Origin: Cyanobacteriota bacterium
Lineage (GTDB): Bacteria; Cyanobacteriota; Sericytochromatia; UBA7694; JACMQJ01
DNA: 41,388 nt
Assembly (NCBI GenBank): GCA_038060635.1
Contig: JBBTGK010000057.1
Coordinates: 1-41,388 of the forward strand
Direction: 5' to 3'
The notes beneath the pieces are model-generated. The model was not told the DNA's origin. It saw only the letters and a list, made by a program, of their open reading frames with translations, and did not search any database. Positions 4,012 through 20,827 of the stretch are shown here, piece after piece (the stretch's first letter is position 1; every line of letters starts with the position of its first letter). Position numbers and translations under genes: made by a program.

Positions 4012-6336
4012 TTATGAAACCAAAAGCATTTTAGCGGTTTGTTTTACAATAAAATCACTATCATTATTTGCTGACCACATAATAGCCCATAAAGCTCGTT
4101 GATCTTTTAAGAAAGAATTTAGAGCCAGAATAGAATGTTTTCTGACATTAGAAGATGAATCTTCTGAAGCAGATTTTAGTAAAAAATTTAATGAGTTTTG
4201 GCTATTTATTCCCGAAACAATAGATATTATAGCAATTTTTGTATCACTATCACTTGAGTAAAAAACATTTCTGAGATAAGGAATTATTTTTTCATCCGAT
4301 TTAGAAAGAGTTTGTATTACCTTATCTCTCATATTCTCAATACTTAAAAATTCAATCAGCACAGAAATAACTGTATCGTTTAACTCTTGTTTTATTAAGG
4401 AAGTTAAAATTTGAATATCAACAATATCTTCATTTTCTTGAGCTAACATCTTTAATAACAACTCTAATGAATCATTATTTTTTATTTTCTCTAAAGCTTT
4501 GGCAACAGCTTTTCGAACAATCCAATTTTTATTTTCAGACTGAATAGAAAGTAGGTATAAAAACTTTTTTTCATCTTCATTAGATAAATTAAAATTATTT
4601 AAAGCATTTATCGCTGTTTCTATTATATTAAAATCTGAAGTTAAAACAAAATGGTATAGAGTTTTTATAAATTCATCAGATTTCATTTCGCCTAATGCTT
4701 CTATAATAGCAATTACAACAAAAGGTGATTTATCGTTTAGAAGATCGATAAATTTTTTTATAACTTCTTCATTTATTTTTTGTTTTGAAAAAGTTTTTAT
4801 AGCAAAATATCTTACCCAAGGTTCACTATCAAATAAACATTCAAATATATATGGATAACTAGTTTCTCCAAATTCAGATAAAGTTAATATAGCTTCTTTT
4901 TTGACTTGTTGATTAGAATCTGACAAAAATTTAATTAAAATATTTCTGCTTTCTTCGTTATTATATTTTATTAAAGCTTTTGCTACATTTTTTCTAACTC
5001 TAAAATCTTCGTGATTAACAAATTTTTTTAGAAAATTAAAATTATTAGCATTATTTAATGAACAAATAAGCTCAAATATAAAAATAAAATTACCTTCATC
5101 TTTATATAAAATATCTTTTAATTTTTTATCTAATTTTTTACTAGGAAAGTTTTTTAAAGCGTTAATTGCTGCAATTTTAATATCCGTAGATTTATTATTT
5201 ATAAGTAATAAAAGCTTATCGATAGATTTTTCGTTTAATATTTTACCTAAAGCTTCAGCAGATTGTATTTTAATATCAATAGACTTACTATTTAAATGTT
5301 TTAATATTATATCGTTAGATTCCTGTATTTTATTATCAGCAAAAATCTTTATTATAAGTTTATTACATTCCTTAGAATTATTTTTTAAAAATTTCATAAG
5401 AAGGCAAATATCTTTTTCTTTTATTATATAAAAAGCTTCTTCTATTTCAAGTTCTAATTCTTGAGAATAATTATCTGCCAATATATCTATAGCTTTATTA
5501 TTTCCAATAACGCCCAGTAAAAATATACAACCTATTTTTAAAGAATAATCTTGATTACTAATAACTTTAGTTAATATTTTAAGAACATTATTAATAGTTT
5601 TTTTATCAAGTGAATTTAAATAGGAAGATATTATATTTATTAGGTTTTTTTGATTTATTTTTGACTTATCCACTTTATCTTTCATATTTTTTATAGTCAA
5701 AATACAAATTTCTTGGATATAGTCATCTTGACTTTGTAATGCATCTATAATGTATGATATTGCTCTTTCGTCTGCTATATTACTAATTGCTTGTAAAACA
5801 GGCTGTTTTAACATTTCATTTTCTGCTAAATGTAATAACGGTAATAAGGCTTTTTCATCACTTAATTGTCCAAGTGTTATTATAAGAGGAAATTGCTCCC
5901 AAGGATTATCCATATTTGAATATAAATATTGTAATAGAGGGGTTGTAGCTTCTTTATTACCTATTTTACCTATTGCTTCATAAGCGGCAAATTTTACATT
6001 GCTTTCTTCGTCAGTTAATAAATTTAATAATGCTTCAGTTGCAGAAGGATCTTTTATATCACCTAAAATATTACAACTAAAAATTCTTTCATTATAATTA
6101 CCAACTTTAGTTTTTTCTACTAAAATGTTTGTTACGTTTTTTCCCCATGCTGTAAGTATTTCTATAGCAGAATTTCTTTTTATAGCATCTTCAATAACTA
6201 AAAAACTAGCTATTTCATTATATAAATCCTTTTCATGAATTGAAGAAAGTATTTCTATTGTATTTCTTCTTTCTTTTAAATTTTCAGATGATAATTTTTG
6301 TATTAACTCATTATAATGAATATAAGTTTTTTTCAT
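4012..6336 (-). CDS. Large HEAT-repeat (PBS-lyase HEAT-like) protein
   Basis: 774 aa built of recurring ~30-aa helical repeats with the V/R-R-x-x-A-x-x-A-L signature (RRNTIEIL, VRKNVAKALIK, VRKAVAKALEKI, VRKHSILALNS). Its start overlaps the cheW stop as TAATG. Confidence 0.8.
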   Translation of the reverse strand: MKKTYIHYNELIQKLSSENLKERRNTIEILSSIHEKDLYNEIASFLVIEDAIKRNSAIEILTAWGKNVTNILVEKTKVGNYNERIFSCNILGDIKDPSATEALLNLLTDEESNVKFAAYEAIGKIGNKEATTPLLQYLYSNMDNPWEQFPLIITLGQLSDEKALLPLLHLAENEMLKQPVLQAISNIADERAISYIIDALQSQDDYIQEICILTIKNMKDKVDKSKINQKNLINIISSYLNSLDKKTINNVLKILTKVISNQDYSLKIGCIFLLGVIGNNKAIDILADNYSQELELEIEEAFYIIKEKDICLLMKFLKNNSKECNKLIIKIFADNKIQESNDIILKHLNSKSIDIKIQSAEALGKILNEKSIDKLLLLINNKSTDIKIAAINALKNFPSKKLDKKLKDILYKDEGNFIFIFELICSLNNANNFNFLKKFVNHEDFRVRKNVAKALIKYNNEESRNILIKFLSDSNQQVKKEAILTLSEFGETSYPYIFECLFDSEPWVRYFAIKTFSKQKINEEVIKKFIDLLNDKSPFVVIAIIEALGEMKSDEFIKTLYHFVLTSDFNIIETAINALNNFNLSNEDEKKFLYLLSIQSENKNWIVRKAVAKALEKIKNNDSLELLLKMLAQENEDIVDIQILTSLIKQELNDTVISVLIEFLSIENMRDKVIQTLSKSDEKIIPYLRNVFYSSDSDTKIAIISIVSGINSQNSLNFLLKSASEDSSSNVRKHSILALNSFLKDQRALWAIMWSANNDSDFIVKQTAKMLLVS

Positions 6337-16885: not shown

Positions 16886-18130
16886 CTATTTTAAAGCAGA
16901 TAAAATTTCATTAAATTGAAGTTGAACCATTAAAGCCTCATTTAATTGAGCTTTTGTAATTATTTCAGAATCTAATAAAAAATTACCTAAAAGAGGTCCT
17001 TTTGATTCTCCACCAGCTTCATAATTAGCACCAGATCTTGTTGCGGCACGACTTCTATTACTTGCTTCAAAATTTTGTACTGAAACTCTATGAAGTTGTA
17101 TAATTTTATCAAGTTTTTCTACTGGAATATGACCTAAAAATGCTAACCATTCTCCAATTCTCAATCTCATTTCTTTATCTTGTGGAGCATCGTTGGCTCT
17201 TTTAAATAAAATATATTTTGCCATATAAACAGAATATACTTTGTATATAAAATTTACCATACTCAAATTTGAATAAGCTTCAGAATAAACTAAAGATAAA
17301 GACTTAAAACCATCGCAAGGTTTTATAAATTGATATATTTCTACTGGTGTAGATAAATTACCTAATGCTTTTTTAGCACTTTCTGTAGGAATAGGAATTA
17401 TATATTTTAATGTTTCATTTATAGACATTATAGGCTTACTATTAGTTTTATCTACAGGATCTTTTGGTTTTAAGTTAAAAGTTCCTGTTAAAGTTAGACC
17501 TTTAGAAAATTTCATTTCTACTGTATTTCCACTAGGTCTTGGAGGTAAAGTAGATGGTGGGGCTGATGGTGCAGGCATTGTTGGTATAAATTTTTTAACA
17601 GTATTCATTTGATGAACACCTGATGAATTGAAATTTGGTGCTGGTGGTGGAGATGCAGGTTGTCCAATAATTTGAGGTGGTGCAGATGGTGGAGCTGAGG
17701 GAGGTGTAGTATTAGGACGAGATGGTGGAGATGTTTGAGCTGCTGTAGTTGCATTATTACTTTTAATTGAATTTTGCAAAATTAGACTAACTTCAGACAT
17801 AACGCTTTGTTTTACTTCTTCATTTAAAGTAGTAGCTAATTTATTGAAGATTGGAAAAACAGGGATACTTTGTATATGTAATTGCCTTAAAACATTCCAA
17901 TTTAATTCTTCTAAAACTTTTTGTTGGGTGTCTTTAGGAAGAACAGCTAATATTCTACTAACAACAGAAAAAGGATCTGCAGTATGAGATTGAGCAACAC
18001 CATTTACAAGAATCTGAGTAATTTGAGTTAGTGTTTTTTGCTTGTTATCATTATTAAGTAGATTTACTACATTCTCAGCTTCGGATATATCTTTTATAAA
18101 CATATAATTAAAATTTAAATAAATTCTCAA
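16886..18130 (-). CDS. Hypothetical protein with a proline-rich linker and a C-terminal MshEN/T2SSE_N-like 24-residue motif
   Basis: Long ORF with coding-like composition. Central SPPSRPNTTPPSAPPSAPP...SPPPAP low-complexity region. C-terminal LLGNFLLDSEIITKAQLNEALMVQ fits xLGxx[LIV][LIV]xxGx[LIV]xxxxLxxxLxxQ except G to E at position 10. The start is uncertain (TTG at 18130 or ATG at 18103; no clear SD for either). Confidence 0.6.
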   Translation of the reverse strand: MRIYLNFNYMFIKDISEAENVVNLLNNDNKQKTLTQITQILVNGVAQSHTADPFSVVSRILAVLPKDTQQKVLEELNWNVLRQLHIQSIPVFPIFNKLATTLNEEVKQSVMSEVSLILQNSIKSNNATTAAQTSPPSRPNTTPPSAPPSAPPQIIGQPASPPPAPNFNSSGVHQMNTVKKFIPTMPAPSAPPSTLPPRPSGNTVEMKFSKGLTLTGTFNLKPKDPVDKTNSKPIMSINETLKYIIPIPTESAKKALGNLSTPVEIYQFIKPCDGFKSLSLVYSEAYSNLSMVNFIYKVYSVYMAKYILFKRANDAPQDKEMRLRIGEWLAFLGHIPVEKLDKIIQLHRVSVQNFEASNRSRAATRSGANYEAGGESKGPLLGNFLLDSEIITKAQLNEALMVQLQFNEILSALK

Positions 18131-18216
18131 AAATCATATTATACATTATAAACTATATTACAAAAACTATATACCTTAAAATTTAAAAATATATCAAAGC
18201 AATTTAAATTTATATA

Positions 18217-18250
18217 GCAAAAAAGCAGGAAAAAATTCGTTTCCCTGCTT
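18217..18250 (-). terminator. Rho-independent terminator closing the small-peptide unit
   Basis: The minus strand reads AAGCAGGGAA-ACGAATTTT-TTCCTGC-TTTTTTGC. This is a GC-containing stem (GCAGG(G)AA/TTCCTGC, one bulge) followed by a T6 run. It lies about 32 nt after the stop of the 18282-18335 peptide ORF. Confidence 0.6.
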
Positions 18251-18281
18251 GGTAAATAATTCTAAAAATCTTTTCTAAAAA

Positions 18282-18335
18282 TTATCTAAATGATAATCCT
18301 GAATTAATAAATCTGTTGAAAACATAAGAATCCAT
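18282..18335 (-). CDS. 17-codon small ORF, copy B (MDSYVFNRFINSGLSFR)
   Basis: ATG preceded by GGAGG (18342-18346) with a 6-nt spacer TTTATT. Stop is TAA. It is a paralogue of 18388-18441 with two synonymous differences. Below the size cutoff of the ORF track. Confidence 0.5.
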   Translation of the reverse strand: MDSYVFNRFINSGLSFR

Positions 18336-18387
18336 AATAAACCTCCTATTTATAATATATATCAAATTTAACTTCTTAATTTCAAAA

Positions 18388-18441
18388 CTATTTAAAAAAT
18401 AATCCTGAATTAATAAACCTGTTAAACATATAAGAATCCAT
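18388..18441 (-). CDS. 17-codon small ORF, copy A (MDSYMFNRFINSGLFFK)
   Basis: ATG preceded by GGAGG (18448-18452) with the identical 6-nt spacer TTTATT. Stop is TAG. A TATAAT hexamer lies 14 nt upstream of the SD. Confidence 0.5.
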   Translation of the reverse strand: MDSYMFNRFINSGLFFK

Positions 18442-18537
18442 AATAAACCTCCATTTCAAATACATATTATATTTAGGGGTGTATTTAATACCCACTGTCA
18501 ATATTTCTTAATTTATTTAAAATTAAGAAACAAAAAA

Positions 18538-18960
18538 TCACTCAATAACAATCTTCTTAGCTTTTTCCTTATCTATTTTAGGAATAACTAACTCTATTAC
18601 ACCATCAGTATATTTAGCTTTTATATTATCCGTATCTACATTACTAGCAAAACTTACTTGTTTTTGAAAAGAACCATAAACTCTTTCTTTTCTGTGATAG
18701 TTATAATCGCCTTCTTCTTTTATTTCATTTTTTTGTGCTTTCAAAGTAAGAACATTATTATTTATTGAAATATCAATATCTTCTTTTTTTATACCTGCTA
18801 AATCGGCTTTAACGATATATTCATCTTTATTTTCAAGAACATCCACAGGAGGATGAAAGTCTAAACCTTTAGGGTCTTTCCAAAAATCAGTAAACATTCT
18901 GTCTATTTGATTTTGAATTGTAGCAACTTCTTGTAATGGTTCCCATTTTACTAATCTCAT
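18538..18960 (-). CDS. Small heat-shock protein, Hsp20/alpha-crystallin family
   Basis: 140 aa. 'PPVDVLENKDEYIVKADLAGIKKEDIDI' and 'KAKYTDGVIELVIPK' are typical alpha-crystallin-domain blocks. SD GGAGGG upstream. CIRCE operator upstream. Confidence 0.9.
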   Translation of the reverse strand: MRLVKWEPLQEVATIQNQIDRMFTDFWKDPKGLDFHPPVDVLENKDEYIVKADLAGIKKEDIDISINNNVLTLKAQKNEIKEEGDYNYHRKERVYGSFQKQVSFASNVDTDNIKAKYTDGVIELVIPKIDKEKAKKIVIE

Positions 18961-18990
18961 TTTTTATCCCTCCGAAAAAATATTTTTTTA

Positions 18991-19017
18991 TTAGCACTCA
19001 CTATTATTAACTGCTAA
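18991..19017. promoter_or_regulatory. Second, imperfect CIRCE-like inverted repeat
   Basis: TTAGCACTC-N9-AACTGCTAA. One arm is perfect and the other matches 7/9 to the CIRCE consensus. It lies between the predicted -10 and the hsp20 SD, so probably in the 5' UTR. Confidence 0.5.
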
Positions 19018-19025
19018 CAAGAATA

Positions 19026-19054
19026 ATATTATCATTTATTAGCACTCTTGTCAA
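19026..19054 (-). promoter_or_regulatory. Candidate sigma-70 promoter of hsp20, overlapping CIRCE
   Basis: The minus strand reads TTGACA (19054-19049), a 17-nt spacer containing TG at the extended -10 position, then TAATAT (19031-19026). The -35 hexamer sits in the spacer of the perfect CIRCE element. Confidence 0.5.
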
Positions 19055-19065
19055 GTGAGTGCTAA
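19039..19065. promoter_or_regulatory. CIRCE operator (HrcA binding site), perfect consensus
   Basis: TTAGCACTC-TTGTCAAGT-GAGTGCTAA matches the canonical TTAGCACTC-N9-GAGTGCTAA exactly. Confidence 0.85.
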
Positions 19066-19192
19066 TAAATTATTTCTAAAATATTTTTGTTTATATTATT
19101 AATAAGCTTAAAATATTTCAATTTATCATTATGTAATACTGAGATGATATATAATAAAATCTGATTTATTTGAATAAAAATAAAAATTTTAA

Positions 19193-20827
19193 ATGACTTA
19201 TAGCATACAAAAAATAGAATATCTGATTGATCAACAAAAATTTAATCTCATCATAAATATTCTAAATCATGAACAAGAAAAAAATGATTTAAGTTATTAT
19301 TTTTTAGCTAAATGCTATCTTTTACAAGAAAATTATTTATTAGCTTATGAAAATATTCAAAAAGCAGTTAATATTTCACCTTATGGTTTTTATAAAAATG
19401 ATATTTTTTCTGTTTTATTAAATGAATTGTCAACTTGTGGGAAAATAGAAACTAATAGGCAAAAAATTATTATAGATAGTTATGATAAATTTTCAACTCA
19501 TGCAAGAGCTATTTATCCTTTTGCAGATTGTATTACTTTATCAGAATTAGAAAAACTTAATTATTTAAAAGCAGATTATTTTATCATTCCAAATTGGTTA
19601 TCGCCATCTCATCCCATTTATGAAAAAATTGAAGAGTTAAATATTCCTGTAATATCAATGATTGTAGACAGAATTATTCATGCAGAAGAACATATAAAAC
19701 CTAATTTAATTTATGCTGATTTAATTGTTTGTATGGAAAATTATGCTGTCGAATTATATAAAAAGCAAGGTTTTGAAAATGTTATATACATACCTTGTGC
19801 AGGTTCTGTTGGTTATGATCCTTATATATATCCACCAATAAAAACGGAAAAAAAATATGATTTGGTTTTTTTAGGGAATATAAAATCAAATTATACTAAC
19901 TACATTTATAATAATAGAAAAAAAATCTTAGATAAATTAGAAGAGCTTCAAAATAAATATAATATATTAATAAAATCAACCCCTTCTTATAATGAATATG
20001 TAACTTTAACCTCAGAAGCAAGAATTTGTTTAGATAGTACTATAGATAGCAAAGCTTTAAATTATAGGGTTTTTCAAGCTATGGGTATGGGTGTTTTATG
20101 TTTTTCAGAAGATGATAATGATATGGTAAAAGAGCTTTATACAGATAAGAAAGACTTAGTTTTATATAATACAGATAATTTAGAAATTTTAATTAATTAT
20201 TATCTTAATAATCAAGAAGAAAGTAATAAAATAGCAAAAAATGGACAAATTAAAACAACTCAAAATTATACTCATTACCATTTTATAAAACAAGTAATTG
20301 ATGAAGCTAATAAAATGGATCTTAAAAAAAGTCAGAAAAAAAACTTAAGTCAAAATACAATTTCTATGTACAAAGGTATTATGTATTATTATAAAAAAGA
20401 TTATATTAAAGCAATAAGCTATTTTGAGAAAATTATAAATAATAATAATAATGAGAAAAACAATAATATTTTTGTTCAAAAATTATGCTTATATGAAGAA
20501 AATAAATCTCAAGAATTAGAGTTTGAAATAAACAATATATTTAAAAATAATGAAAATAATGTTTTAATAGCATTTAATTATTATATTTTTTTATTTTTTA
20601 TAAAAAAAGAACCTGATAAAAACTTAATTGCTAATATAAAATCAAAATTAGAATCAAAACAATTTGATTATACAGGGCTTATTTTTCTACCAAAAAATCA
20701 ACCAGATTTTGAACTTTTTTATAAATTAAACCATGGTGAAATTATTTTTGAACATGGTATAAATTCAGAAATTTTTATCAATAATTTTTATTTATTACTC
20801 TTAAAAATAATAGAAACTTTTAGATAA
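19193..20827 (+). CDS. TPR-like N-terminal region fused to a CgeB-like glycosyltransferase domain
   Basis: 544 aa. The central block 'KYDLVFLGN...NRKKIL...LNYRVFQAMGMGVLCFSED' resembles the CgeB/YkvP-type glycosyltransferase-like domain. The ends are helical and repeat-like. Family assignment was made by eye only. Confidence 0.55.
   Translation: MTYSIQKIEYLIDQQKFNLIINILNHEQEKNDLSYYFLAKCYLLQENYLLAYENIQKAVNISPYGFYKNDIFSVLLNELSTCGKIETNRQKIIIDSYDKFSTHARAIYPFADCITLSELEKLNYLKADYFIIPNWLSPSHPIYEKIEELNIPVISMIVDRIIHAEEHIKPNLIYADLIVCMENYAVELYKKQGFENVIYIPCAGSVGYDPYIYPPIKTEKKYDLVFLGNIKSNYTNYIYNNRKKILDKLEELQNKYNILIKSTPSYNEYVTLTSEARICLDSTIDSKALNYRVFQAMGMGVLCFSEDDNDMVKELYTDKKDLVLYNTDNLEILINYYLNNQEESNKIAKNGQIKTTQNYTHYHFIKQVIDEANKMDLKKSQKKNLSQNTISMYKGIMYYYKKDYIKAISYFEKIINNNNNEKNNNIFVQKLCLYEENKSQELEFEINNIFKNNENNVLIAFNYYIFLFFIKKEPDKNLIANIKSKLESKQFDYTGLIFLPKNQPDFELFYKLNHGEIIFEHGINSEIFINNFYLLLLKIIETFR

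Follow-up and report, generated by a model that had tools for sequence, protein, structure and literature searches.

What are two 17-codon reading frames doing in tandem behind a small heat shock protein (sHSP) gene? The question is raised by a 41,388-nt stretch of Sericytochromatia DNA (contig JBBTGK010000057.1), here called the window, in which hsp20 is followed on the minus strand by two small open reading frames (sORF-A and sORF-B), each preceded by a Shine-Dalgarno (SD) sequence. Comparison with homologous loci indicates that these frames very probably belong to a real coding gene family whose members are translated, and that in the window they probably form the last cistrons of an hsp20 operon under the CIRCE operator (controlling inverted repeat of chaperone expression). 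The Sericytochromatia are the non-photosynthetic sister group of the cyanobacteria, and we know of essentially no work on the biology of gene regulation in them. The window has a GC content of 26%. Identity of its MutS amounts to 77% with the homologue from the Candidatus Sericytochromatia metagenome-assembled genome (MAG) STL-CYA2 and to 65-71% with other Sericytochromatia-type sequences, and drops to about 53% against Blackallbacteria and about 47% against photosynthetic cyanobacteria. The two sORFs and their repeat units are as follows.

18388..18441, minus strand: sORF-A, 17 codons plus TAG, MDSYMFNRFINSGLFFK, a member of the MD[LS][YF]xFN[RK]xI micropeptide family
18282..18335, minus strand: sORF-B, 17 codons plus TAA, MDSYVFNRFINSGLSFR, tandem paralogue of sORF-A
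18442..18452, minus strand: SD of sORF-A, GGAGG (18452-18448), with 6-nt spacer TTTATT
18336..18346, minus strand: SD of sORF-B, GGAGG (18346-18342), with 6-nt spacer TTTATT
18384..18452: first 69-nt copy of the direct repeat, running from the SD to 4 nt beyond the stop codon
18278..18346: second 69-nt copy of the direct repeat, at a period of 106 and with 88% identity to the first

Both frames open with GGAGG-TTTATT-ATG followed by the 17-codon ORF, and on the minus strand the hsp20 stop codon (18540-18538) is followed by a 96-nt spacer, the sORF-A unit, a 41-nt spacer and the sORF-B unit. The intergenic gap that holds them (18131-18537) measures 407 nt, given a start of the next, proline-rich ORF at TTG 18130. 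The 23-nt motif formed by SD and start occurs exactly twice in the window, where 0.00 occurrences are expected from 100 shuffles. When the two units are aligned, identity is maximal exactly over the segment from SD to stop codon; similarity is about 70% across some 25 nt 5' of the SD and reaches background level within about 10 nt or less past the stop codon. The copies differ by one M/V replacement (ATG/GTT), two synonymous changes (TTT/TTC and AGG/AGA), one F/S replacement (TTT/TCA), one K/R replacement (AAA/AGA) and their stop codons (TAG/TAA). The initial annotation of this DNA had described a tandem pair of SD-preceded 17-codon genes with a period of 106 nt, and its account of the ORFs, the repeat, the SD and spacer and the base differences holds throughout. 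Among three Hainich aquifer contigs, hsp20 and the entire intergenic region are identical, and sORF-A is unchanged in a 99% strain variant, the sole variant contig that spans it.

Homologues of the pair were sought among DNA loci gathered for comparison (labelled L004 to L064, with the window as reference for all identities), and those that bear on the family are listed here.

L004: hsp20 67% identical to that of the window; sORF after hsp20, MDLYIFNRTIGMF
L007: hsp20 67% identical; sORF after hsp20, MDLFLFNKMISI
L008/L009/L010: hsp20 44% identical; sORF after hsp20, MDLYFFNRIIASYK
L011: hsp20 46% identical; sORF after hsp20, MDLYFFNRFIESL
L012: hsp20 44% identical; sORF after hsp20, MDLYFFNRLIESL
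L050: no hsp20 at the locus; stand-alone sORF in a second Sericytochromatia MAG, MDLYFFNRTIQLF
L062/L063: hsp20 51% identical; no sORF, a terminator lying directly past the hsp20 stop codon (L062 4436-4494)

Five further hsp20-linked lineages thus carry one ORF of 12-14 codons on the same strand, 58-134 nt 3' of hsp20, with an SD that contains GGAG and lies 7-8 nt upstream (7-10 nt when L050 is included). The neighbouring genes differ in all five, and in a Pfam annotation of the window and seven loci hsp20 is the only recurrent neighbour of the sORF, in six of the seven lineages. There is one sORF per locus in every lineage except the window, and the window pair, as far as these loci tell, is a lineage-specific tandem duplicate whose 17-aa products are the longest members of the family. 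The L050 sORF has an SD and a terminator of its own and is flanked on both sides by genes of the opposite strand, hsp20 being absent from the 8-kb locus.

The eight peptides share a start of the form M-D-[LS]-[YF]-x-F-N-[RK]-x-I, followed by two to seven variable tail residues to a total of 12-17 aa. M1, D2, F6, N7 and I10 are invariant; position 3 is L or S, position 4 Y or F and position 8 R or K, while positions 5 and 9 are mostly hydrophobic. Between lineages, DNA identity is 78% over the first ten codons as against 43% and 38% in the adjoining 25-30 nt, the variable alignment columns fall on codon positions 1, 2 and 3 in the ratio 2/4/7, and conserved residues are written with synonymous codons (TTT/TTC, AAC/AAT and ATT/ATA/ATC, as well as TTA/TTG for L and AGA/AGG for R). 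In a column-shuffle test the observed amino-acid identity was reached in 22 of 20,000 shuffles of the eight sequences, and in 47 of 20,000 when only the five independent hsp20-anchored lineages, none of them chosen by pattern, were shuffled. The two alternative frames contain stop codons in 2/8 and 7/8 sequences. SD and ATG are kept in every copy (8/8). The earlier suggestion that selection acts on the peptide is borne out by the comparison, the five hsp20-anchored lineages and L050 retaining ATG, SD, frame and decapeptide amid flanks that cannot be aligned. No homologous locus was found that breaks the frame or loses the SD or ATG, and none with conservation of RNA only, RNAalifold returning 0 conserved base pairs over the sORF units. 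The alignments thus indicate that purifying selection acts on the peptide sequence across lineages. As a separate observation, a run of at least seven U in sORF codons 4-7 (TAT TTT TTT AAC) in L008, L011, L012 and L050 is a potential slippery or transcript-slippage site; since the run is absent from the window copies, slippage is unlikely to be functional.

Nothing resembling the family was found in databases. Extended in-frame ORFs gave 0 matches at E <= 10 in Pfam, NCBIfam and PDB, Rfam offered nothing relevant (a gathering-threshold scan of the whole window and an E-value scan of 18000-19300), and a literature search found the peptide strings in no paper and no description of such a peptide or of an hsp20-linked sORF. 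A scan with the peptide pattern, independent of hsp20 and covering one genome per species, gave 36 matches, the only genuine ones being L037 (from the same MAG as L004) and L050. Another 27 were discarded as N-termini of rhizobial membrane proteins of about 220 aa that start with MDSFEFNK, and the rest lay inside long ORFs or in unrelated short ORFs. In those 27 loci (within L017-L052; Mesorhizobium and other Rhizobiales) the start MDSFEFNK[LIV]IG is followed by a hydrophobic segment; this decapeptide match is probably a coincidence, though it is the sole other recurrence of the motif. Among seven matches in a metagenome collection there was no family member (L057, for example, sits within a 1,062-aa ORF on the opposite strand), and a viral collection gave 0 matches. 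The more distant and GC-richer hsp20 loci L013, L014 and L064 have neither CIRCE nor sORF, and L061 (hsp20 60% identical) contributes nothing, its contig stopping 139 nt past hsp20. The family has so far been found only in low-GC Candidatus Sericytochromatia.

How would such a gene be expressed? The elements of the putative transcription unit in the window are listed below.

18538..18960, minus strand: hsp20, 140 aa, alpha-crystallin family (PF00011, E = 2.6e-21), first cistron
19039..19065: CIRCE 1, perfect TTAGCACTC-N9-GAGTGCTAA, 0 mismatches, with the -35 hexamer within its spacer
18991..19017: CIRCE 2, 2 mismatches, within the hsp20 5' leader
19026..19054, minus strand: sigma-70-type promoter TTGACA-17-TAATAT, extended TG, the top promoter-like site of the region
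18502..18532, minus strand: AT-only 13-bp hairpin without T-run just past the hsp20 stop codon, an intercistronic stem-loop
18217..18250, minus strand: intrinsic terminator, 11-bp stem AAGCAGGGAAA/TTTTCCTGCTT (18250-18223) plus T-run, closing the hsp20-sORF unit

By the CIRCE operator at its promoter, the hsp20 unit of the window would belong to the HrcA/CIRCE regulon. The promoter is conserved as a perfect or near-perfect CIRCE with the -35 TTGACA in its 9-nt spacer, a -10 element 17 nt further on and a second CIRCE in the leader; the same arrangement as in the window is seen in L004 (elements at 5890-5960), L007, L008 and L011, and the double CIRCE is kept in the window, L004, L008, L011, L012 and L062, a single CIRCE being detected in L007. 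In model cyanobacteria HrcA and CIRCE are usually tied to groE and not to hspA, and a double-CIRCE hsp20 may be a trait of the Sericytochromatia. At the other end, every sORF is followed 10-35 nt after its stop codon by a strong terminator of A-tract, GC-hairpin and T-tract, whose folding energy ranges from -15 to -27 kcal/mol. The terminator proposed after sORF-B in the initial annotation is present as the stem 18250-18223 with its T-run; its segment folds with -15.6 kcal/mol, and it is the sole terminator-like site in 17900-19300, where 0.1 are expected. The AT-only hairpin noted there after hsp20 also exists, but with a predicted stem of 13 bp at about 18532-18502 instead of 10 bp, and the scan of 17900-19300 did not call it as a terminator.

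Between these two ends, a terminator scan of the hsp20-sORF spacer found no canonical terminator in the window, L004, L008 and L011, and candidate internal promoters within the hsp20-sORF unit, none of them convincing, did not exceed the number expected from shuffles. Because the CIRCE promoter is conserved and there is usually no terminator ahead of the sORF, the peptide gene is most likely the final cistron of an operon controlled by HrcA, and the simplest reading of the sequences is one HrcA-repressed unit running from hsp20 through the sORFs to the terminator, which would make the sORFs co-transcribed with hsp20 and heat-inducible. Of the two options entertained earlier, the tail of a CIRCE-controlled hsp20 transcript is therefore favoured over a discrete transcription unit in the window. 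The L050 copy lacks hsp20 and CIRCE, so the gene can also be expressed autonomously, and no promoter or operator common to L050 and the hsp20-linked copies was found.

The spacers between hsp20 and the sORFs are structured and may set the ratio of Hsp20 to peptide. Each relative has its own, different stable stem-loop in the intercistronic position, and these may be processing or stability elements. In L011 (4424-4560) and L012 (4183-4317) a 15-bp spacer hairpin is preserved through two double compensatory changes. The same spacer, in this sublineage only, forms an 8-bp G.U-rich helix that buries the sORF SD (probability of being unpaired 0.01-0.05), and these two loci may thus have a special gate on sORF translation.

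Two further observations concern the flanks of the unit. On the 5' side, one sub-clade has a TetR-family gene divergent from hsp20 (L008 5093-5785, L011 3083-3769 and L012 2844-3530, all on the minus strand), a layout that resembles RheA, the repressor of Streptomyces hsp18; the window has a tetratricopeptide repeat (TPR)-glycosyltransferase gene in this place instead. On the 3' side of the window sORFs lies the proline-rich ORF of 414 aa (16886-18130, minus strand), for which gene callers prefer ATG 18103 over TTG 18130, and which has no Pfam match and no sORF linkage in any other lineage compared.

What, then, might the peptide do? Since hsp20 is the sole recurrent neighbour despite the turnover of the flanks, and since the shared promoter carries a heat-shock operator, we favour, by somewhat more than an even chance, a micropeptide that is co-expressed under stress and acts in trans. 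Transcription would start from the CIRCE-embedded sigma-70-type promoter, which HrcA would repress and heat or proteotoxic stress would release; the transcript would span hsp20 and the sORF or sORFs and end at the single strong intrinsic terminator, and ribosomes would start separately at the strong SD of each sORF. The freed peptide would then serve the heat-stress or proteostasis response in trans, as a small partner that binds its target. Of the roles proposed in the initial annotation, a small stress peptide co-induced with the sHSP is the candidate that appears to fit best. A peptide partner of a neighbouring protein survives in part: as only hsp20 recurs beside the sORF, the partner can only mean Hsp20, and not the proline-rich protein.

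Among individual targets, the co-encoded sHSP would be the most probable, the peptide for example filling one of several peptide-binding grooves of the alpha-crystallin domain and thereby tuning oligomer dynamics. Free short peptides of sHSP terminal regions bind alpha-crystallin-domain grooves, and groove competition tunes oligomerisation and client binding (PMC6791718, PMC6212398). Furthermore, there is a resemblance between the F-N-[RK]-x-I core of the peptide and the most conserved N-terminal motif of the Hsp20 proteins of this clade, [ILF]-[ND]-[RK]-x-F. This resemblance was noticed post hoc and is not significant, and neither fusion nor co-variation accompanies it, for which reason Hsp20 itself is kept as a tentative target that is unlikely on balance, by analogy with such groove-binding peptides. 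A more specific form, which we regard as slightly less likely still, makes the peptide a dedicated, separately encoded sHSP co-factor, produced in stoichiometry with Hsp20 from the same CIRCE-controlled mRNA and competing with the [ILF]-[ND]-[RK]-x-F motif of Hsp20; docking in the groove would then switch the sHSP from storage oligomer to active holdase or back. Mimicry of the Hsp20 N-terminal motif or of the IxI motif was considered and rejected, the sequence similarity not going beyond chance and no consistent I-x-I being found among the peptides.

Several observations weigh against a stress-linked, Hsp20-directed peptide and the operon that would deliver it. The L050 sORF stands by itself, the 363 nt upstream of it being free of CIRCE, and linkage to hsp20 is accordingly not obligatory. 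Conversely, L062 and L063, a closely related lineage of low GC, have the same double-CIRCE hsp20, yet no sORF follows it. The L007 spacer between hsp20 and sORF holds a weak terminator-like hairpin, as the window spacer holds its 13-bp AT hairpin. Local alignments of the peptides to their cognate Hsp20 proteins score no better than shuffled controls, and by chance alone the PHI-[ND]-[RK]-x-PHI pattern is expected about 0.5 times per 140-aa protein. A peptide-like extension, as a fusion would leave, was sought in the Hsp20 proteins of the sORF-less lineage and is absent. The hydrophobic moment of the peptides is not above that of shuffles, and the idea of an amphipathic helix or membrane peptide was dropped for its equality with them. 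Lastly, the sample is small (eight peptides from seven lineages), and L050 was retrieved with a pattern that forces the motif.

Some of these observations would also suit a stress micropeptide whose target is not Hsp20 (the membrane, another chaperone or protease, or a regulator) and which borrows the CIRCE promoter of hsp20 as a heat-inducible site, a reading to which we give a limited but real chance. It would account for the occurrence both of an sORF without hsp20 (L050) and of an hsp20 without sORF (L062), as well as for the lack of any significant sequence relation to, or fusion with, Hsp20. Tiny trans-acting peptides offer precedents for unrelated targets, such as the 15-aa SpfP, which acts on CRP, and the 14-aa peTrpL. 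Yet hsp20 as neighbour in six of seven lineages exceeds what a random pick among heat-inducible sites would give, and as regards the membrane in particular, the peptide has neither the length nor the apolar character for a transmembrane role, nor is it significantly amphipathic.

More doubtful is a cis-acting sORF, in which arrest by the nascent decapeptide or recruitment of ribosomes governs the 3' end of the hsp20 mRNA and the released peptide has no function. The conserved part is indeed the first ten residues, with tail and length varying, which recalls the Erm leaders, short arrest leaders that stall within about ten codons. The sORF also always lies near a terminator, and intercistronic hairpins exist, including the one with compensatory changes in L011/L012 and the SD-sequestering helix found there. 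However, the L050 sORF has no upstream gene to control, and the gene past the terminator is convergent in three lineages, which leaves no downstream target. In most cases more than 20 nt separate the stop codon from the terminator stem, so a terminating ribosome could not mask it. Sequestration of the SD is not general either (probability of being unpaired 0.9 in L004, 0.7 in L008 and 0.5 in L050), and there is no conserved alternative structure of the antiterminator kind. Two special cases were rejected: an attenuator or arrest leader, as L004, L007 and L050 have a convergent next gene, the other loci an unrelated one, and the terminators are separate hairpins, and an RNA thermometer, as the SD is sequestered only in L011/L012, with little melting up to 45 C, and is open in L004, L008 and L050. 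SD accessibility of the window sORFs does not differ from that of shuffles.

Much less probable is a non-coding element (a small RNA (sRNA), DNA repeat or protein-binding site) in which the ORFs are incidental. AT-rich intergenic repeats are common, and by our own estimate a 12-codon frame stays open by chance with a probability of about 0.34 at this composition; against this, the wobble pattern and the column-shuffle test favour coding, SD and ATG persist in all copies, conservation ends at the ORF boundaries, and there is neither conserved structure nor an Rfam match. Very improbable, too, is a precursor of a ribosomally synthesised and post-translationally modified peptide (RiPP) or a secreted signalling peptide of the SHP/XIP/Phr kind. 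Short tandem paralogous peptide genes do typify RiPP precursor arrays, and ComS/XIP precursors may be 17 aa long. Nonetheless, the Pfam-annotated loci show no conserved adjacent modifying enzyme, protease, exporter or Rgg/ComR/RNPP-type receptor, which disfavours the RiPP-like or signalling role initially suggested, and the peptides, mostly of 12-13 aa, have no leader/core organisation, their conserved part being the extreme N-terminus. Least probable of all is a type I toxin-antitoxin-like locus, with a toxic peptide and an antisense RNA in tandem like ibs/sib or ldr, which the very small intergenic ORFs, strong SDs and tandem duplication in the window might suggest, but which fails because peptides of 12-17 aa with four or five polar or charged residues and a grand average of hydropathy (GRAVY) of 0-1.2 cannot span a membrane, consensus scans of the plus strand found promoter and terminator sites not above shuffle expectation, and the sORF is single-copy elsewhere and lies within a probable chaperone operon.

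Taken together, the sORFs form a previously undescribed micropeptide family that is unusually short and has no relative among known bacterial stress-induced small proteins. At 12-17 aa it sits at the lower limit of protein size, and no gene caller annotates its members. The sister lineage of the cyanobacteria in which it occurs is uncultured, and for its apparently fixed place behind hsp20, at the end of a probable CIRCE-controlled operon, no described precedent was found. The recurrence behind an hsp20 with a double-CIRCE promoter predicts a role of the free peptide in the sHSP or heat-shock response. Modulation of the sHSP by the peptide, if real, would bring a new principle of regulation to a class of chaperones that are activated in ways still poorly understood, and a peptide that is indeed an Hsp20 co-factor would be, for any organism, the first genetically encoded regulator of an sHSP to act as a peptide in trans. 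Should the sHSP link fail, the family would still be a clean case of selection on a peptide of about ten residues.

How does the family compare with known systems? Leader peptides of 9-34 aa (TrpL, PheL, TnaC, SpeFL and the Erm leaders) share with it the size, a strong SD, a nearby intrinsic terminator and a short conserved segment, but they precede the gene they control and use alternative RNA structures, whereas the sORF follows hsp20, has a terminator and often a convergent gene behind it, and shows neither alternative structures nor regulatory codon runs. The type I toxins Ibs/Sib and Ldr/Rdl are likewise encoded by tiny intergenic ORFs, in tandem as in the window, yet such toxins typically have 18 aa or more and are mostly apolar, the sORF peptides are too short and polar for a transmembrane segment, no antisense RNA signal stood out in the consensus scans, and the sORF is single elsewhere and part of a probable chaperone operon. 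The terminal motifs of sHSPs (the C-terminal IxI and the N-terminal 'distal' and 'conserved' motifs; PMC6791718, PMC6212398) are short hydrophobic or aromatic peptides as well; in contrast to the sORF products they are not separately encoded and belong to the sHSP chain, to clients or to co-chaperones, and the resemblance of the sORF peptides to them amounts to a non-significant five-residue pattern. Closer in kind are the enterobacterial small stress proteins, which share with the family an unannotated, SD-preceded sORF, conservation at the peptide level, a stress promoter and presumed binding to a larger protein. Hemm et al. are said to have described, in 2010, unannotated enterobacterial sORFs of 50 aa or fewer that are induced by heat and other stresses. 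PMC10730256 and PMC11429745 are reviews on this class. Those proteins are unrelated in sequence to the family, which is much shorter (12-17 aa) than most of the characterised ones and looks cytosolic, unlike a single transmembrane helix; the family also lies at the 3' end of a putative Sericytochromatia HrcA/CIRCE hsp20 operon. Nearest in size are SpfP (15 aa, encoded in Spot 42 RNA and binding CRP) and peTrpL (a 14-aa rhizobial leader peptide), which differ in sitting within an sRNA or attenuator that has an RNA function of its own, where the sORF has a probable chaperone-operon context and no detectable RNA function or conserved RNA structure, but which demonstrate that peptides in this size range can be specific regulators in trans.

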